Origin: Candidatus Omnitrophota bacterium
GTDB taxonomy: Bacteria > Omnitrophota > Gorgyraeia > Duberdicusellales > 4484-171
NCBI GenBank assembly: GCA_014729775.1
Contig: WJJJ01000006.1
Location: 16,694-80,693, forward strand
Length of the DNA: 64,000 nt
Reading direction: 5' to 3'
Shown here: positions 4,121-60,579 of the stretch, one piece after another
Numbering within the stretch: the first letter of the stretch is position 1
Layout of the letters: every line of letters starts with the position of its first letter
The notes under the pieces: generated by a model
Seen by the model: the letters and a program-made list of their open reading frames with translations, nothing else
Databases searched by the model: none
What the model was told of the DNA's origin: nothing
Translations under genes and position numbers: made by a program

Positions 4121-4800
4121 ACACCCTCCTTTTTTTGAAAATTTTGTCCTCTGTTCTCCCCTCGCGACATCGTTTCCTCCAACAGCCCTACCCGAAGACC
4201 GCAGGCGCGTATGCTTCGCACCAGCGCCGGCAGGATAGAAATCGTCGAGTCGCGTTTCCCCCACAGTGATTTTTCCGCCCCGTCATGAAGAAGAAAAATA
4301 TCACCCGGGGAAACTTCTCCGCCGAGCAAACTCCGGCGCATCAAAAACGGAACTCCCATCCAGTCATAGCTGGACTTCGACCAGCGCACCGAAATATACC
4401 CCAGTTCGCGCACACTCCGTTCCATGGCCGCGTGAAACCAGTCCCATAACGCCCAGGTCGGCCGAAAATAACGGGGCTCGGTCCCGGTAATATCGGCAAT
4501 CGCTTTGTGCGCGTCAGCTACTTCCCCGCGCATCGCCCGGTAATTCAGGATCGGACTCACCGGATGAGAGTAGGTGTGGTTGCCGATCTCATGCCCCTGC
4601 TGGGCTATCCGCCGCACCAGAGCCGAATAACGCGCTGCCCTTCGGCCGACGAGAAAGAAACTCGCGCGGACCTCGTAACGGGCCAGCACGTCGAGAAGCC
4701 GGGGGGTATATTCCGGATGCGGCCCGTCGTCGAACGTCAGCGCCACGCATCCCGCGGCCGGACTTATGCTCTCTTGGACGACTAACCCGCTTTTATTCAT
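4099..4800 (-). CDS. polysaccharide deacetylase (NodB-homology domain)
   Basis: [26 protein letters not shown] motifs. The 3' end overlaps the infA start by ~20 nt. Confidence 0.75.
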
Positions 4801-15938: not shown

Positions 15939-16853
15939 TTACTCCACCCGTACCTTGAGCCGTTTTCCGCCCCAGTTCGTAATTCCGAAATTATCCGTAA
16001 AAAAAACGACCACCCTGTCCCAGTCTTCCTTGAATATCTTCATCGGGATGTTGTCATGCCCGATACCCGGCTCCACCTTTTTCACGTAAGGTTTATTCAT
16101 TTCATTAAACCACTTCTCCAGCTTCAGCAGAGTTTCGTAGGCGCTATCCTGATCACCGCACACCATTAATGTCCGCGGCAGACGACGCGCGTCCTCTTTA
16201 CGGAACCCCGGCGGCAGGAATCCGGCCACCATCGCGAACAGTTTCACCCGGGGATCCGCGGAGGCAACCTCAAGCCCGATCGTCCCGCCCAGAGAATACC
16301 CAACGATGCCTATTTTTTCTTTATCGGCGTTCGGGATCATTTGAGCGTAATCAACGACGCGAACGAACGTGTTTCCCCAATTGCTCCGCGCGCTTTGGAA
16401 ATAATGCACGTTGATCGCGATCACCCCTTCGTTCATCAAATCGGTCGCGAATCTTTTATACCGCTGGGCCCGGTCTCCTTGAATTCCGGCCGAACCGTGG
16501 ATCAGGATCACCACCGGACAAAGTGAGGTGCCGGGATTGTATACGTCGATCCGGACTTCATCATCTCCTACTTCTATCGTTTCCCGACTGAGCCCTTTCA
16601 CTGCTTTTGCCGCAGGGAATTCGGAAGAACCTATTTCTTCGATGTCATCCTTCCAGTAGGTAAGGATCGTCCCGTACCTTTTAACTTTGATGTATTCGTC
16701 GGTCTGTTCGATAATCGGCGCGCGGATCACCTCTCCGCGTTTCAAACGGATCACTTCCGCGAAACCCGGACCGATCCCCCCCCAAATCCCTGCCGAGAAT
16801 ACCGCCGCCGACACCCAGCACAATAAATGTTTTTTCATCGTTCTCCTCATCAC
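15939..16853 (-). CDS. secreted alpha/beta hydrolase (esterase/dienelactone-hydrolase-like) with the shared N-terminal module
   Basis: GYSLGG nucleophile elbow, a later His, and N-terminal module EVIRLKRGEVIRAPIIEQTDEYIKVKRYGTILTYWKDDIEEI. Confidence 0.65.
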   Translation of the reverse strand: MMRRTMKKHLLCWVSAAVFSAGIWGGIGPGFAEVIRLKRGEVIRAPIIEQTDEYIKVKRYGTILTYWKDDIEEIGSSEFPAAKAVKGLSRETIEVGDDEVRIDVYNPGTSLCPVVILIHGSAGIQGDRAQRYKRFATDLMNEGVIAINVHYFQSARSNWGNTFVRVVDYAQMIPNADKEKIGIVGYSLGGTIGLEVASADPRVKLFAMVAGFLPPGFRKEDARRLPRTLMVCGDQDSAYETLLKLEKWFNEMNKPYVKKVEPGIGHDNIPMKIFKEDWDRVVVFFTDNFGITNWGGKRLKVRVE

Positions 16854-31695: not shown

Positions 31696-31767
31696 TTGTA
31701 TATCCGGCAGCCTCTCTCGACAGCGGCCACGATGCCTGTTTCGTCCTTCGGCTGCGTGTGCGTGTCC

Positions 31768-31860
31768 GCATATCAGGACATCAGTATATCAGCAGGCAAC
31801 AGATCAATGTATCAGGTGATCAAGAATTATGCGCATGCATCCCGGCCTGCTGCTTCTCCG
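31768..31860. repeat. intergenic repeat element copy A (ATATCAG family)
   Basis: GCATATCAGGACATCAGTATATCAGCAGGC ... GCCTGCTG inverted partner; 27/29 identical to copy C. Confidence 0.55.
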
Positions 31861-31945
31861 ACACCCTGACTACTACTCCCCTCGTCTGCCGGCCCGCTCT
31901 CTCCGACCCTTCCCTTCCAGGCTTCTTACCTCTTCTTCCCGTCTC

Positions 31946-32311
31946 TCACGCCGCATAAATAAACACCACGCCCACCGCGCAGGTAACCAACGCGAACACG
32001 CGGATCAACGGATCCGGGCTGCGCTCTATTTTTCCCATTATCGGCTGCAGCCCCCCGGAACGGAGCAGGAGGATCAGGGCGCCTTTGAGTACCGCGATCA
32101 CCCCGAACAGCGTGATCACAAACGACAAGCGGCACTGGGAGGCGGCAAAAAGAAGAAAAATTCCGACGATGAAGGCGATCGGCGCCGACCACAGGATCCG
32201 ATTACCCCGCTGCCAGAACACCAGCCACCGCCGCAAAATCTGAGGCCGGATGAGGTAGGCAACTCCCTCGGCCATGAATACAATACCCAGGAGTTTGACG
32301 ATTTCGGACAT
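31946..32311 (-). CDS. small hypothetical membrane protein (3-4 TM)
   Basis: 121-aa hydrophobic ORF flanked by repeat elements. No recognisable motif. Confidence 0.4.
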   Translation of the reverse strand: MSEIVKLLGIVFMAEGVAYLIRPQILRRWLVFWQRGNRILWSAPIAFIVGIFLLFAASQCRLSFVITLFGVIAVLKGALILLLRSGGLQPIMGKIERSPDPLIRVFALVTCAVGVVFIYAA

Positions 32312-32363
32312 ATCTCCCCCTTTTTTTTAACCCTAAACGCTAAATCCTCCACAAAGAAAAGTA

Positions 32364-32466
32364 AATCAGGATATCAGTTTATCGGAAACCATGAAAGTGT
32401 ATGCCGCAATGCGGTTTATCTGATAAACTCCCCACCCATATCCTGTGATACTGATATACTGTATCT
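32364..32466. repeat. intergenic repeat element copy B
   Basis: AAATCAGGATATCAG.. left end, CCTGTGATACTGATATACTGTATCTC right end, and an internal GTTTATC-T-GATAAAC palindrome. Confidence 0.5.
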
Positions 32467-32527
32467 CTCCTTTACTTCTTGCCTCTTACCTCTTCCCCTC
32501 CGGAATCAAGGATCCCGGATCGAAGAA

Positions 32528-34706: not shown

Positions 34707-35609
34707 TTAGAATGCTCTGTCCGATATCCGTTCACCCGGCCAGGTGCTCACGCCAAAATTATCTGCGAACCACATCACGATGCTGCGCCAGTTATCCCAG
34801 AACATCGTCATGGGAATAGTGTGGCCGTAACCCTTATCTACTTCGTAGGTAAACGACTTTCCGTATTCTTCATACCAGGATTTCAGCCTGCGCAGGGTTT
34901 TTATGGAGTTGTCCTTGCTGCCGCTGCGGAAATACATCTTGGGCAGACGCGACGCGTGAAACTTGGTAAAACCCGGGGGGAAGTATCCGGCACTAATCGC
35001 GAGCAGTTTGATCCGCGGATCGCGAGAGGCCACCTGCAGGGCGACGGTCCCGCCGAGCGAGTATCCCACCATCCCGATTTTGTCTTCGTCCGCATTGGGA
35101 ATCGACTGGGCAAAATCGATCGCTTTGACGAATGTCCGCACCCACATCGGTTGGGAACTTTCAAAATAATGGACGTTGACCGCGATAATCCCCTGGTTCA
35201 TTAAGTCGTAACCGAAGCGGCGATAACGCGAGGCACGCTTGCCCGTGATTCCGGCCGACCCGTGGATCACCAGCACCACGGGAGAACCAGGACGGCCGGG
35301 GTTGTAGACATCTACCTTTACCCGCTTGTTGCCCAGAGTGAGATATTCGGTGGATTCTCCCATGGAAACCGCTTCGCCCTGATCGATCGCTTCCCCGTGC
35401 TCTCCGCTCCCGGCGCCTTCAATCGATTCAATATCCGATTTCCAGTAGGTCAGCGGCACCCCGGATATTTCAATCTTCACGTACTCCCCGGTCTGCTCGA
35501 CAATCTTCCCCCGCACTTCGTTCCCGTTCTTGAGCACGAGGGTTTCAGCACAGAGCGCGAACGGAAGAAAAAAAAGAAAAGATAAGCTGAGCGTGAATAC
35601 CTTCTTCAT
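34707..35609 (-). CDS. secreted alpha/beta hydrolase, paralog of 15939..16853, with the shared N-terminal module
   Basis: GYSLGG nucleophile elbow, collinear with 15939..16853 over its whole length; module ETLVLKNGNEVRGKIVEQTGEYVKIEISGVPLTYWKSDIESI. Confidence 0.65.
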   Translation of the reverse strand: MKKVFTLSLSFLFFLPFALCAETLVLKNGNEVRGKIVEQTGEYVKIEISGVPLTYWKSDIESIEGAGSGEHGEAIDQGEAVSMGESTEYLTLGNKRVKVDVYNPGRPGSPVVLVIHGSAGITGKRASRYRRFGYDLMNQGIIAVNVHYFESSQPMWVRTFVKAIDFAQSIPNADEDKIGMVGYSLGGTVALQVASRDPRIKLLAISAGYFPPGFTKFHASRLPKMYFRSGSKDNSIKTLRRLKSWYEEYGKSFTYEVDKGYGHTIPMTMFWDNWRSIVMWFADNFGVSTWPGERISDRAF

Positions 35610-35681
35610 CTTACAATTTCACCGCACATCCCGCACCCGGAATCAAGAATCCAGAATCGAAACGATCCTGCCGCCTCCCCC

Positions 35682-39068: not shown

Positions 39069-40395
39069 GATGAGACGGGAGGTCTTTCAGTAAAATATTC
39101 GACTCGGCACCGGCGATCCGACGATTGAAATCAGCAAGCACCGATTTCAGTTTTTTCAAGGAAGAGGTTTCAGGCACGGGAATACTCGTCGACCCGTGGG
39201 ATTCCAGCGTCCGGAGCACCGACGCGACGGTCAATGAATGCGCGTCCCTGGCCGGCTGATACGCGGTATCCTGGTAGCCGGAAAGTTGTACTTCGTTAGC
39301 CAGCCCGTCCTGTTGAAGCTCAAAGAGTATATCCCGTACCAGCCGGATGGGAATATCCAGACGGTGGGAAATATCCTCTGCGGGAAGAGGCGCTTCTCCC
39401 CGGTCGAATCGGGATACCATCAGATGAAAAATATAGAGTGTCAGAAGACGGCGGTAGTCCAGGCTGATATTGGTGCAGTCGGGCTCGTATTCATAGGTAT
39501 CCACGTTTTGATGAGCGAAAGATATCTCGGCGCCGAACAGCACGATCAGCCAGCTCAACTGCATCCATATCAAAAAAAGCGGCAGCGCGGCGAAACTCCC
39601 GTAAATCGCGTTCATACGGGATGCCCCGATCTGCAGACCGATATAAGCCCACTGCACCACCTGATACACCGTTCCGGCCGCGATCCCGGCCACGATCCCG
39701 GATCTGATATGCACCTTGGTATTCGGCATAAACACATAGATAAAGGAAAACAGGATCCACAGCACGACAAACGGCAGGAGCCTGAGCAAAAAGAAGATCA
39801 CCGGACTGAAGGCCCCCAGAAGCGCGGTTTTTTCGACAAGCAGGGTCACCTGACTTTGAATAAAAACAGTGACACTGCTAGAAACGATAAACAGCACCGG
39901 ACAAACCATCATCACCGACAGATAATCGCTGAACTTTCGTCCGATCGACCGAGGTTTCTTCACCCCCCAGATATCGTTGAAGGAACGTTCGATATTCCCG
40001 AGCACCCGAATCACCGTCCAGAACAGAAAAACGACGCCGATCCCTGCGACCACGCCGCCGCGCGTATTCTCCAGCAAAGTACGGGAAAAGGTAATGATCC
40101 TGGTCACCACTTCTTCCTGGCCCGAAAACTTGGTGAGCAGCTGCCTCTCCAGCATTTTGTCCAGGCCGAAGCCTTTGGCGATGCCAAACAGCAGAGCGAA
40201 TACCGGCACGATTGAGAGAAGAGAGAAAAAGGTAAGAGCCGAAGCCCACAACCGGCACTTATCTTCCTGAAATCCGCGTAAGCTGAGCACCACCACCCGC
40301 AGGGGTTTGATCACATATGATCTTTTTCCGGCAAGGTCCCGGCCGCGCACGCGCCAAATGTCCCGGGTGAGGAATTGAATGATTTTTTTTACCAT
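39058..40395 (-). CDS. YihY/BrkB-family inner membrane protein
   Basis: Six TM helices, LTFFSLLSIVP and GAEISF motifs, 445 aa. Confidence 0.7.
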   Translation of the reverse strand: MVKKIIQFLTRDIWRVRGRDLAGKRSYVIKPLRVVVLSLRGFQEDKCRLWASALTFFSLLSIVPVFALLFGIAKGFGLDKMLERQLLTKFSGQEEVVTRIITFSRTLLENTRGGVVAGIGVVFLFWTVIRVLGNIERSFNDIWGVKKPRSIGRKFSDYLSVMMVCPVLFIVSSSVTVFIQSQVTLLVEKTALLGAFSPVIFFLLRLLPFVVLWILFSFIYVFMPNTKVHIRSGIVAGIAAGTVYQVVQWAYIGLQIGASRMNAIYGSFAALPLFLIWMQLSWLIVLFGAEISFAHQNVDTYEYEPDCTNISLDYRRLLTLYIFHLMVSRFDRGEAPLPAEDISHRLDIPIRLVRDILFELQQDGLANEVQLSGYQDTAYQPARDAHSLTVASVLRTLESHGSTSIPVPETSSLKKLKSVLADFNRRIAGAESNILLKDLPSHHGS

Positions 40396-43765: not shown

Positions 43766-43868
43766 TGTACACCTCAGTTACACACTCAATTACTATGGTA
43801 AAGACACCGACCTGTTACGTCAAGAGAAAAGGCAAAGGCCGGAAGGAGGGATAAGGGATAAGAAGTAA

Positions 43869-43918
43869 GGGGGTAAGAGAGAAGAGAAGAGAAGAGAAGA
43901 GAAGAGAAGAGAAGAGAA
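43869..43918. repeat. (GAGAA)10 pentanucleotide microsatellite, preceded by degenerate purine-rich copies from ~43830
   Basis: Ten perfect tandem GAGAA units read directly from the sequence, 104-153 bp upstream of the 43765 start codon. Confidence 0.9.
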
Positions 43919-44083
43919 AAAACAGTGTGGAGACGGAAAGCAGAGGATCAACGACAGGCAAAAGAGAGCAACAGGACCTCTTTCCTCTGCGCAACAACGC
44001 AGCTATGCAAAATCGAGGATCAATTCGGACGGCACGACTTCCTTTATGCGCACCGGACGCCGCGATACGGGCAGGGAAATTCG

Positions 44084-45078: not shown

Positions 45079-45240
45079 TCCCCCTCCTTGATTACGTACT
45101 TCTTCCCTTGTTATTGTACTCCATTTTCTCAAGAAAGACAATAGCATCCTGCGGAGGATCTGAATCGCGCGTATCAGGTGACCGGGACGAAGAGAGCGAG
45201 TTCCTTTATGAAGAGCTGATCTCGCGGCTACACCGAAATC

Positions 45241-45375
45241 GCATATCAGGACATCAGAATATCAGCGGGAAGTAGACTAAGGCATCAGACTATCGAGAAT
45301 AATAAGCGTGTATTCTGCTCTGTTTCTTTTCTGCCCCCCCCCGCTCACTGATATCTTATACTGATATACTCTATC
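45241..45375. repeat. intergenic repeat element copy C (most complete)
   Basis: Left arm GCATATCAGGACATCAGAATATCAGCGGG. Right arm CCCGCTCACTGATATCTTATACTGATATACTCTATC. The arm termini are reverse complements of each other. Confidence 0.6.
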
Positions 45376-45395
45376 GGCCTCTCACCTCTTCTCCC

Positions 45396-47054
45396 TCATG
45401 CTCCCATTTCCGCTTTCACGTCTTCTTCGGCAGTAGCGGCCGGACGGATATTGAATTTTTCCCGGAGGACTTTGAGCACGTTGGACGAAACAAATGCCGG
45501 AAGTGAAGGCCCCAGAACAATATTCCGCACATCCAGTGAAAACAAGGTCAGCAGAATACATACCGCTTTCTGTTCGTACCAGGAAATGATGAACGAAAGC
45601 GGCAAATCATTCACGCCGCACCCCAGTGCTTCCGCGAGACCCGAAGCGATCTTGATCGCTGAATAGGAGTCGTTACACTGACCGCAGTCAAGCAAACGGG
45701 GTATCCCGCCGATCGTTCCTAAGTCCAAACGGTTAATCCTGAACTTCCCGCAGGCCAACGTCAATATCACGCAGTCTTCGGGAACCTTCTCGGCAAATTC
45801 GGTATAATAGTTGCGGCCCGGTTTGGCGCCGTCACAACCGCCGATCAAAAAAAATCTTTTGATTTTTTTCTGCTTCACCAGATCGAGTACTTTATCGGCG
45901 ACGCCAAGCACCGCATGATGACCGAAGCCTACGGTAATCGTCTTCTCGATCCGGTCATCCTTAAATCCGCCGAGAGAAAACGCTTTTTCGATGACCGGTG
46001 AAAAGTCTTTTTTTTCGTTTCCTCCGGGAATATGCGCAATTCCGGGCCAGGCGACCAAGCCGGTGGTAAAAATTCGGTCAATGTAAGAGGATTTCGGCTC
46101 CTGGATACAATTGGTCGTCATCAGGATAACCGCGGGGATTCCGTCGAACTCCTTCTGCTGATTCTGCCAGGCCGACCCAAAATGGCCGGCAAAATGAGGA
46201 TATTTTTTCAACTCAGGGTACCCGTGCGCAGGAAGCATCTCTCCGTGGGTATAGATATTGATTCCCTTCCCTTCGGTCTGCTCCAGAAGCTGTGCAAGAT
46301 CCAGCAGATCATGCCCGGAAACAATAATTGCCGGCCCTTTTTTCACTCCGAGAGCTACTTCCGTGGGTTCGGGATGGCCGAAGCGCCCGGTATGCGCAGC
46401 ATCAAGAAGTTCAAGGCATTTTAAGTTCACGCTGCCGAACTCAAAAATCAGCTTCACCAAATCATCGGCATTCAGCGAATCGTCAACTAATGCCGCCAAA
46501 CCGCGGGAAAAGAACCGATTAACCTCGATGTCTTCCTTCCCCAGCAGTAATGCGTGATGCGCGTAGGCCGCCATTCCTTTGAGACCGTAGAGCAAAATCT
46601 CCCGCAGACTGCGAATATCCTCGTCCAATTCCGGATCACTCATAATCCCTACTTCATCAGCCCGCGAAAGCATCTGCTCACGGGTCTGCCCAGGCTCCCA
46701 TAACACTGCGCTGGGAATCCCGGCAATCCATTTCTCATCCCCCCTTTCTTCCACCCTGGCTTTGAGCATATCCCTCAAAGTTCTGGCCCGTATGATATCC
46801 GCCTCCAGCCGGGCCTCGTCAAAATTCACGTTGGTTACGGTAGTAAACAGCCCTTCCGCCAGAAATCTCGCGACCTCGGCTTCTTCCATGCCAATCTTCC
46901 GCGCTTCCGATTCGTACCAGGCGATCTGCTTCAGCAGATGAACCAATACGTCCTGCAGATCTGCGACCGGAGCTGTCTTTCCGCATACTCCTTTTTGTAA
47001 ATGACACCCTTGACCCTTCATCGTCTGCTCACATTGGCGGCAAAACATTTCCAT
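45396..47054 (-). CDS. hcp: hydroxylamine reductase / hybrid-cluster protein
   Basis: MFCRQCEQT N-terminal cubane-cluster motif, 552 aa, hybrid-cluster Cys/His/Glu ligand pattern. Confidence 0.9.
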   Translation of the reverse strand: MEMFCRQCEQTMKGQGCHLQKGVCGKTAPVADLQDVLVHLLKQIAWYESEARKIGMEEAEVARFLAEGLFTTVTNVNFDEARLEADIIRARTLRDMLKARVEERGDEKWIAGIPSAVLWEPGQTREQMLSRADEVGIMSDPELDEDIRSLREILLYGLKGMAAYAHHALLLGKEDIEVNRFFSRGLAALVDDSLNADDLVKLIFEFGSVNLKCLELLDAAHTGRFGHPEPTEVALGVKKGPAIIVSGHDLLDLAQLLEQTEGKGINIYTHGEMLPAHGYPELKKYPHFAGHFGSAWQNQQKEFDGIPAVILMTTNCIQEPKSSYIDRIFTTGLVAWPGIAHIPGGNEKKDFSPVIEKAFSLGGFKDDRIEKTITVGFGHHAVLGVADKVLDLVKQKKIKRFFLIGGCDGAKPGRNYYTEFAEKVPEDCVILTLACGKFRINRLDLGTIGGIPRLLDCGQCNDSYSAIKIASGLAEALGCGVNDLPLSFIISWYEQKAVCILLTLFSLDVRNIVLGPSLPAFVSSNVLKVLREKFNIRPAATAEEDVKAEMGA

Positions 47055-47534: not shown

Positions 47535-47548
47535 TCACCTCCACATAT

Positions 47549-47569
47549 ATGATACTATTTTAGTATCAT
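47549..47569. promoter_or_regulatory. perfect 9-3-9 palindrome ATGATACTA-TTT-TAGTATCAT, candidate Rrf2 operator
   Basis: Read directly from the sequence; it lies 15-35 bp upstream of the rrf2 start codon, adjacent to the RBS GGAGGTG. Confidence 0.4.
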
Positions 47570-47640
47570 TTGTCAAGAAGGATCTCCTTTCCCGCGCTCC
47601 CGGACACGCCCCCCGTAAACGCCCCCTGTGAACTTCACCC

Positions 47641-47664
47641 CTGTTAACTTCAGAAGTTAACCAG
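47641..47664. promoter_or_regulatory. palindrome GTTAACTTC-A-GAAGTTAAC plus flanking CCTGTkAACTTCA and AAyGGGAGG direct repeats (47625..47751)
   Basis: Read directly from the sequence. Confidence 0.35.
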
Positions 47665-47983
47665 AGGTAATAAAATCAACGGTTTTTCACCGGTCGTGTC
47701 AACCTACGAAGTTAACGGGAGGAAGTTAATGGGAGGTACGCGAACGGGAGGTGAACAGGAAGAGACCAGATTGGTCGTTTCTTGACATCTTGGGTTACAG
47801 AACGGGAACAGGAAATGAGTGATCTGGCAGAGGATTGAAAAAGAGGGGAATATTCCGGATGTGTATGTTGAGCTAATGATTCGGATAGAGCTTGGGACCT
47901 TTCTTTTCTTCCGGCTTCTCTGCTTCTTTGCCGCTTGCCTCCTTACTCCTCTTCTCTTTTACCCTTCCCCAACCTACGCGGAT

Positions 47984-48072
47984 GAATCAGATTCGCATAT
48001 CAAAATATCAGTAGGAAGCGTGTCAAGCTCTCCGGCTATCAGAAACTGTTTCCACAGAGTTCTGATACCTCC
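47984..48072. repeat. intergenic repeat element copy E
   Basis: GCATATCAAAATATCAGTAGG left end and TATCAGAAACTG..CAGAGTTCTGATACCTCC right end. Confidence 0.45.
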
Positions 48073-48148
48073 TTCTCTTTTGCTTCTTACTTCTTCAGTC
48101 TCTCCTTCCCTCCAGGCTCAAGGATCGTGGATCCAGCGCATCCCGCCT

Positions 48149-56471: not shown

Positions 56472-56687
56472 CGCAACCCCCCCTCCTTGTACCCCAGTTC
56501 GACCTGCAAATATTCTCTATTCACCGATAGTATACACTTGCTTCCCACCGGTGCAACATGATTTTCTCCGGCGCGCCTCTTGCGGATTCTGCCCAACGGC
56601 CACGAAACAACGACCATGAGCGGTTTCTTCACATTTTTAGTTTTTTCGCTATGCTTCTCTGAAATCAAGGATCGAAGATCAACCGTC

Positions 56688-58484: not shown

Positions 58485-58611
58485 ACACTTCCCATCGCGC
58501 CGTCTTTGACCTCATCAAGTCTGTTATATCGTGATATATGAGGCCGGTCAACATAAAAACATACCAGATCCTCCCCGCCGGCCGGGATTTCCCTTTCGTT
58601 ACCGCGTTTAT

Positions 58612-60410: not shown

Positions 60411-60536
60411 CTTATATCAGCACATAGGGATATCGGTCAAAAGCGGATAAGAGCATCAGATATTATGAGAATGCATTCTGATATGCTGCTCCTCTGAGAA
60501 CCTGCCCGCTGATCTCCTGGTCTGCTGATATACCCT
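60411..60536. repeat. intergenic repeat element copy D
   Basis: CTTATATCAGCACATAGGGATATCGG / GAGCATCAGATAT.. left end and CCCGCTGATCTCCTGGTCTGCTGATATACCCTC right end, similar to copy C. Confidence 0.5.
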
Positions 60537-60579
60537 CTTTTTCTATTTCTCTCTTCCCGTCCAGCATCCAGGATCTCCC

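Follow-up and report, generated by a model that had tools for sequence, protein, structure and literature searches.

We report a family of dispersed intergenic repeats in an Omnitrophota genome, which we interpret, with moderate confidence, as decayed copies of a ~130-bp non-autonomous foldback DNA element of the MITE/REPIN type that is present in few lineages of this phylum. Five copies (A to E) were found in the window, i.e., the whole stretch of 64,000 nucleotides that was analysed. Because intact copies exist in a few other Omnitrophota genomes, the five loci are most likely relics of a miniature mobile element. The family appears to be undescribed: searches of Rfam and of the literature, the latter returning nothing on Omnitrophota repeats, agree with the first-pass annotation of the window, which had matched the repeat to no known family.

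Omnitrophota are an uncultured phylum of small cells, and the element would be the first miniature repeat described for it. The conserved pentamer at strict 8-nt phasing offers a concrete starting point in the search for the enzyme or protein by which the arms are read, and the element could serve as a lineage marker and as a predictor of assembly breaks in MAGs. The consequence for the window itself is small, in that decayed relics explain several long intergenic spacers.

Results

The window and its genes

The window is bacterial and has an extreme coding-strand bias, with practically all confident genes of positions 1-64000 on the minus strand and GC skew uniformly negative over the 64 kb. 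The hybrid-cluster protein gene hcp (45396-47054, minus strand), which adjoins copy C, encodes a product with 100% identity to MBD3245618.1, annotated as "hydroxylamine reductase [Candidatus Omnitrophica bacterium]" and encoded on a 94.8-kb MAG contig; the best homologues after it show 67-68% identity and nearly all come from Omnitrophota. We scanned 70 ORFs of the window against Pfam and rescanned 10 of those that had no match at E <= 1e-5 against NCBIfam. The matches are ordinary housekeeping, transport and redox genes, and no transposase, integrase, Y1/RAYT or other recombinase was detected among these 70 ORFs, so that the earlier statement that no transposase lies nearby holds within the window.

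Five related loci

The five loci named in the first-pass annotation are all present at the reported positions (Table 1). The strongest test of them is an arm profile HMM built from 12 arms taken exclusively from other contigs, with no window sequence included. This HMM matches exactly the five loci in the 64-kb window, at 37.5 to 14.5 bits, and nothing elsewhere above noise, while its best score in 30 dinucleotide-preserving shuffles of the window is 11.9 bits. The word ATATCAG is four-fold enriched in the window, with 20 occurrences versus 4.9 expected, a count reached in 0 of 100 shuffles.

Table 1. Positions of the repeat copies, adjoining purine-rich tracts and GATCC-type motifs in the window
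Feature	Position	Strand	Description	Arm HMM	RNA fold
Copy A	31767-31860	-	well-kept arm 31767-31822 and degraded opposite side keeping CAGCAGGC/GCCTGCTG	31.6 bits, E 8e-9	z -2.0
Copy B	32361-32461	-	short left arm fragment 32361-32385 and right arm 32418-32459	15.4 bits, E 9e-4; 12.2 bits, E 0.0095	z -1.6
Copy C	45239-45371	-	full-length but decayed foldback element		-45.2 kcal/mol, z -2.8
Copy C arms	45240-45294; 45326-45371	-	left (gene-distal) arm; right remnant	31.2 bits, E 1e-8 (45240-45294); weak match (45346-45368)
Copy D	60411-60535	-	full-length; right arm 60478-60533 complete, left arm 60413-60465 decayed	37.5 bits, E 1e-10 (top window score)	z -0.9
Copy E	47984-48072	-	units 1-4, innermost unit pair and loop; remainder gone	14.5 bits, E 0.0018 (47986-48042)	z -0.5
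Purine-rich tract at copy A	31861-31945	-	from stop codon of gene 31946-32311 to copy A; GAAGAGGTAAGA at 31924-31935
Purine-rich tract at copy B	32464-32501	-	array of degenerate heptamers (GAGGTAA-type) that precedes copy B in gene sense; purine-run scan, TRF period 7 at 32472-32494, 12-mer at 32484-32495
Purine-rich tract at copy C	45372-45395	-	from hcp stop codon to copy C; contains GAAGAGGTGAGA at 45380-45391
Purine-rich tract at copy D	60529-60563	-	from stop codon of P-type ATPase gene to copy D; purine-run scan
Purine-rich tract at copy E	48066-48113	-	gene-proximal side of copy E; purine-run scan and 12-mer
GATCC-type motif sites	32500-32524; 35637-35661; 48112-48136; 56659-56683; about 2750-2785	-

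Several details noted in the first-pass annotation are borne out as well. The left arms of A and C are 27/29 identical over the segment that it quoted (the two copies are 72% identical over 100 nt), the right arms of B, C and D all end in the shared CTGATATAC (at 32451-32459, 45361-45369 and 60525-60533, respectively), the two termini of C are reverse-complementary, the pairing noted in A is retained, and each copy lies between co-directional minus-strand genes. A period of 8 is found by TRF at 31770-31792 in A and at 45243-45265 in C. Two items did not hold, GGATCC as a specific part (see below) and a mini-palindrome of the same word that had been placed at 58538-58551. The latter sequence, TATATCGTGATATA, lies at about 58526-58539, gives no arm-profile score and probably arose by chance; it was rejected as a member of the family.

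The window copies are 90-135 bp long and are old, mutationally decayed members of the family, usually with one arm better kept than the other. This decay is apparent from the content of the arms: D has seven units in one arm (GTATATCAG CAGACCAG GAGATCAG CGGGCAG GTTCTCAG AGGAGCAG CATATCAG), and A and E amount to essentially one arm plus debris. The arm units 1-4 of E read GCATATCAA AATATCAG TAGGAAG, and its innermost pair and loop read TATCAGAA...TTCTGATA. Watson-Crick matches between the two arms number 33/60 in C and 36/60 in D. All five copies have the same orientation, with same-orientation alignment better than inverted alignment in 9 of the 10 pairs. At n=5 this bias is weak (1/16), and since all the genes lie on one strand, orientation with respect to transcription is inseparable from orientation with respect to replication. 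The genes that flank the copies, both in the window and in the Omnitrophota MAG PPR_0471 described below, are unrelated and do not belong to a common regulon; they include genes for a response regulator and Rrf2, and fpg, thiL, alr and pfk-like genes.

Each window copy is located just downstream of a purine-rich tract that follows a stop codon. The first-pass annotation had described a CT-rich tract and the GGATCC motif after each copy. The tract, which is purine-rich in gene sense, is present and is more specific than this description, in that the 12-mer GAAGAGGTRAGA (allowing at most 1 mismatch) occurs four times in the window (0.5 expected), each time on the minus strand, and is confined to loci A, B, C and E. 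GGATCC was rejected as a part of the element: it is common genome-wide, its occurrences (42 versus 28 expected) are mostly intragenic, and among the five loci only B and E have it in their intergenic region. Copy E has a second purine-rich tract on its opposite side (47898-47975, minus strand), as if it had been inserted into a single tract and split it. CCCATTA was considered as a second intergenic motif and was dropped (6 occurrences versus 6.9 expected).

Anatomy of the element

The intact element is ~130 bp long and consists of two inverted 59-nt arms with a loop of ~10 nt between them. Each arm contains seven phased 8-nt units (NNNATCAG), of which the fourth is odd (nGGnAG), in the order GCGCATATCAG, nnTAYCAG, nnnATCAG, nnGGnAG, nnTAYCAG, nnnAYCAG, nATATCAGG. 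The arrays have a period of 8, their non-identical units follow a fixed order, and two arrays face each other as an inverted pair; a single 59-nt arm, being made of direct 8-nt units, is not self-complementary. In the window copies the odd fourth unit appears in its correct place as CGGGAAG, CAGGCAA, CGGGCAG and TAGGAAG, which distinguishes the family from plain octamer microsatellites. The columns of the ATCAG core carry 1.82 bits versus 0.87 bits in the spacer columns, and this constraint on the phased pentamers fits sequence-specific protein recognition rather than pairing. The arms of one element are only ~80% complementary, no better than arms of different copies.

Copies in other genomes

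Clean copies were found in PPR_0471 and on six metagenome contigs. Matches of the periodic pattern YTGATATNYTGATRTNYTGATATG among genome contigs are mostly (TTGATATG)n and (CTGATATG)n microsatellites of Bacteroidota and other phyla, and the only relevant ones are L056 and L067, both from PPR_0471. Among metagenome records a stringent 26-nt pattern is matched only by the six contigs L119-L124, and it gave 0 matches in the viral contigs scanned. PPR_0471 carries three copies in 13 kb, which is an ascertainment-biased sample. Full foldbacks are present in L056, L121, L122 and L124, and in the window at C and D; L119 and L123, like A and E of the window, have a single arm, and the arm in L067 runs off the end of the examined locus.

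The elements of L056, L121 and L122 are 125-138 bp long, non-coding and located between ORFs. The two copies in L056, at 2325-2460 and 4575-4715, each have 47/59 Watson-Crick matches between their arms and fold with -64 and -79 kcal/mol, respectively (z -9.9 and -12.6). The arms of the L056 element differ from each other and can be assigned to an alpha and a beta type. The two copies are 87% identical when one of them is inverted (138 aligned columns, loop included) versus 75% identical in the same orientation; they are therefore one asymmetric element (alpha arm, loop, beta arm) that is present in both orientations between same-strand genes.

The ends of the PPR_0471 elements are palindromic (TAAAnGCGC...GCGCnTTTA). 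A candidate target-site duplication, the dinucleotide TA, adjoins the two L056 copies at both ends and the copies in L067, L121 and L122 at their left ends. This TA may instead be a piece of the palindromic end, and it is absent at L119, L123, L124 and the window copies. In PPR_0471 and L124 the copies lie 29-35 nt and 5-10 nt, respectively, from the start of the downstream gene; inspection by eye of the 29-35 nt between the PPR_0471 copies and the next start codon for outward promoters revealed nothing convincing. No transposase, RAYT or recombinase was detected in 10 ORFs scanned beside copies on other contigs, and neither the window nor the fragments showed a longer, autonomous element bounded by such arms.

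In two contigs the copies overlap the last codons at the 3' ends of real ORFs, namely a GT4 glycosyltransferase gene (L124, 7435-7495) and a Wzy_C O-antigen ligase gene (L119, 1309-1391), so that the insertion appears to supply a C-terminal tail and a stop codon.

The family is confined to a few Omnitrophota lineages and is patchy across the phylum, as counted in 64 kb and small fragments. No copy was found in the ~140 kb of sequence examined from other lineages of Omnitrophota, seven or eight in number, nor at the loci of Hcp and ThiL homologues in relatives, the nearest of which has ~60-68% protein identity. The gene order mtnA-thiL-tsaE-tsaB-alr is conserved in the clade. In PPR_0471 the mtnA-thiL and tsaB-alr junctions measure 190 and 167 nt and contain one element each, and the element is absent from the orthologous junctions of the distant relatives L127 and L130, where mtnA and thiL are 3 nt apart and tsaB and alr are 8 nt apart or overlapping. 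Since L127 and L130 are relatives with only 56-60% ThiL identity, these short junctions are suggestive and are not true empty sites.

Tests for a DNA element versus an RNA structure

A DNA element is favoured by three tests, namely the presence of the element in both orientations, the lack of covariation and the lack of strand asymmetry. The covariation term of the alifold analysis is positive (+3.39), with compensatory changes in 3 of 40 pairs, and most pairs are invariant ATCAG/CTGAT. Over seven elements the mismatches on the sense strand comprise 25 G-U and 28 A-C, i.e., there is no asymmetry with respect to the transcript strand. Rfam gave nothing at the gathering score for the whole window and nothing at E <= 10 for copy C; for the clean copies it gave only generic miRNA-hairpin matches below threshold (27 bits versus gathering scores of 68-110).

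A scan with a terminator consensus found no terminator-like site at copy C, and the 3' flanks of the window copies (GCGATTTCGG, GCGGACACG, GCGAATCTG) have no T-run after the 3' arm. The PPR_0471 copies end in GCGCTTTTA, and their stem of ~55 bp is A+T-rich, unlike the short G+C-rich stem of a terminator. We discarded the T-run as an oriented terminator signal: the A-run and the T-run terminate the palindrome on either side and move with the element in both orientations.

Discussion

The first-pass annotation had offered three options for the repeat, a MITE-like element, a structured 3'-UTR RNA or a set of sites for a DNA-binding protein. The MITE-like element is the best supported of these, by a defined asymmetric 130-bp element, its presence in both orientations, its location in gene junctions that are tight in relatives, the patchy distribution and the solo and decayed copies; the structured RNA does not fare well in light of the covariation, the mismatches and the weak folds of the window copies. 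We infer that a trans-acting transposase or recombinase would recognise the phased ATCAG pentamers as a subterminal array of binding sites and would place the element, by copying or moving it, in short gaps between genes at gene ends, and that the copies would drift afterwards and become the relics seen in the window genome. These relics probably have only incidental effects at most; the upstream gene could, for example, gain a weak hairpin in its 3' UTR. Against a plain selfish relic, the single orientation in the window and the conserved purine-rich tract after the stop codon could mean selection for a role at the transcript level.

Such a role is the essence of the REP-like alternative, in which the foldback in the 3' UTR acts as a terminator, an exonuclease block or an RNase III substrate and sets differential expression within operons. 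The location of each window copy after a stop codon and between co-directional genes, the common orientation of the five copies, the ~55-bp stems and very low z-scores of the clean copies, and the ends of the PPR_0471 element, which would yield a hairpin and a short T-run in either orientation, would all suit this function. We nevertheless consider it unlikely, given the positive alifold term with 3/40 compensatory pairs, the balance of G-U and A-C mismatches (25 versus 28 in seven elements), the occurrence of the same element in both orientations in PPR_0471, the folds of the window copies, which hardly surpass those of shuffled sequence (z -0.5 to -2.8), and the lack of a terminator-like site at copy C and of a T-run after the 3' arms in the window. 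A function in RNA is also compatible with a mobile origin, which makes it an add-on more than an exclusive rival. Alternatively, the loci could be dispersed arrays of seven direct and seven inverted ATCAG sites with 8-bp phasing, cooperatively coated by a protein that serves nucleoid organisation or regulation. This would account for pentamers that are kept while the spacers vary (1.82 versus 0.87 bits), for the strict 8-nt phase, for sites that are both direct and inverted and for the proximity of some copies to downstream gene starts in PPR_0471 and L124. However, no common regulon unites the flanking genes, most of the sampled Omnitrophota lack the family, no candidate protein was identified, and the decay of the window copies argues against a maintained function; moreover, a 130-bp unit with its loop and asymmetric arms has been copied as a block, which independent gain of sites would not give. 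We regard this reading as quite unlikely.

A role at the transcript level or as a protein array may overlie the mobile element, and the conserved phasing of the ATCAG pentamers, as a sequence pattern, points to sequence-specific recognition, perhaps by the transposase itself. A purely local origin, in which replication slippage would create short-period arrays independently in each intergenic region with no common element behind them, appears highly improbable. The intergenic regions of the genome do also contain 5- and 7-nt arrays, and (YTGATATG)n microsatellites are widespread in other phyla, but several genomes have in common the fixed order of seven non-identical units, including the fourth that lacks ATCAG, and to judge from these sequences the shared order largely refutes slippage. 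The 87% identity of the L056 copies over 138 aligned columns, loop included, and the 72% identity of copies A and C over 100 nt likewise speak against it.

Comparison with known repeat systems

Our preferred reading, a miniature mobile element, invites comparison with the bacterial MITEs, such as Correia/NEMIS of Neisseria and ERIC/IRU. The likeness extends to a non-coding sequence of ~100-150 bp whose inverted termini form a long imperfect hairpin, and to many dispersed intergenic copies that lie at gene ends or inside operons, occur in both orientations and decay. In contrast to these MITEs, the arms of the Omnitrophota element are seven phased 8-nt units with an ATCAG core instead of a plain TIR, the sequence examined contains no established target-site duplication and no parent IS or transposase, and the host belongs to the uncultured phylum Omnitrophota.

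The closest architectural analogues of the ATCAG element are the eukaryotic Foldback (FB) transposons, which also have long inverted arms of tandem short sub-repeats and a small or absent internal region. FB elements are eukaryotic and far larger, and the likeness is one of form, with no evidence of common ancestry or a common enzyme. Arrays of short sites are also known from ribbon-helix-helix proteins, which coat DNA cooperatively: MetJ binds 8-bp metboxes, ParG binds 8-bp-spaced tetramer boxes and omega of pSM19035 binds 7-bp WATCACW heptads. These arrays resemble the arms of the ATCAG element in their contiguous short sites, their phasing of 7-8 bp and their direct and inverted arrangement, and WATCACW itself resembles WATCAGN, whereas they are single regulatory or partition sites beside their own genes and not a dispersed multi-copy element. 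The likeness in 8-bp phasing may be taken as a lead, and it implicates no ribbon-helix-helix protein.

In the REP/REPIN-RAYT system, two inverted modules and a short spacer constitute a replicative hairpin unit, which is extragenic, leaves single-module remnants and, according to the proposed model, is mobilised in trans by a single-copy enzyme (PMC3116915, PMC3337134). The ATCAG element is similarly an extragenic doublet of inverted modules that forms a hairpin and leaves singlets as remnants. REP sequences are imperfect palindromes of ~20-40 nt, whereas the module of the ATCAG element comprises 59 nt of direct sub-repeats and is not palindromic; for want of a short palindrome in its arm, the element falls outside the definition of a REP. 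The conserved GTAG head is missing as well, and the 64-kb window has no RAYT (Y1 transposase) gene.

Intergenic direct repeats of the heptamer TAACTGA (= CTGATAA) have been described in Beggiatoaceae, Cyanobacteria and Bacteroidetes, where they form near-perfect direct tandem arrays, mostly just upstream of start codons, and a repeat-binding protein has been proposed for them (PMC4679880). These heptamers and the STRR heptamers of cyanobacteria share with the ATCAG element the short-period intergenic arrays and nearly the same core word, CTGATA, and differ from it in that the period of the element is 8 and its non-identical units, in fixed order, form inverted pairs that make up a discrete 130-bp element. 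It is conceivable, and in our view very unlikely, that the ATCAG element is a prokaryotic counterpart of the foldback transposons, in which the arms would be cooperative protein-loading arrays (seven ATCAG sites per arm at 8-bp spacing) read by a dedicated putative protein, e.g., of the ribbon-helix-helix or HUH type, and which, along with the TAACTGA heptamers of Beggiatoaceae and Cyanobacteria and the (YTGATATG)n octamers of Bacteroidota, would make up one wider class of short-period repeats with a "CTGATA" core.

Other repeats in the window and elsewhere

The purine-rich tracts of the window are degenerate 7-nt arrays of the AGTAAGA/GAGGTAA type that usually begin right after a stop codon, and in the intergenic regions they resemble cyanobacterial STRR-type heptamer repeats. 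In addition to the tracts beside the copies, purine-rich sequence is found on the minus strand at 2708-2744, where no ATCAG element adjoins it, and on the plus strand at 40214-40244 and 43822-43933. The last of these is a 112-nt run between two minus-strand genes and includes a perfect (AGAGA)x8.2 microsatellite at 43878-43918. A GATCC-type motif (e.g., GATCCGGGATCCTTGATTCCGG) with ~7-nt phasing is found on the minus strand directly after stop codons (Table 1) and sometimes runs into a purine-rich tract; it is independent of the ATCAG element.

Two dienelactone hydrolase-family genes (15939-16853 and 34707-35609) contain an internal 155-nt direct repeat (16393-16547 and 35158-35312, 70% identity), which reflects paralogues and is not a mobile repeat. 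The gene of an Rrf2 regulator precedes hcp, and its upstream region (47545-47740) has a TTGACA promoter-like site that carries the palindrome GATACTAAAATAGTATC and, at a greater upstream distance, GTTAACTTC/GAAGTTAAC repeats in direct and inverted arrangement (TRF 47623-47652 and 47708-47736). The palindrome and the repeats are probably operator sites for the Rrf2 protein.

Outside the window, L056 of PPR_0471 contains an (AAATCCC)n array at 925-975 and an inverted (TTGGGAT)n array at 1104-1151, which flank ~130 nt in a convergent intergenic region. With this second foldback-type feature in PPR_0471, inverted arrays of short units may be a general habit of these genomes. Microsatellites of the octamer types (TTGATATG)n and (CTGATATG)n occur widely in MAGs of rumen Bacteroidales, in Flavobacterium and Saprospiraceae and in some Gammaproteobacteria (L001-L118), where they often immediately precede a start codon of the opposite strand and may be contingency-locus repeats; some of them (L017, L025, L033) are paired with inverted TTGATAAG/CTTATCAA arrays.
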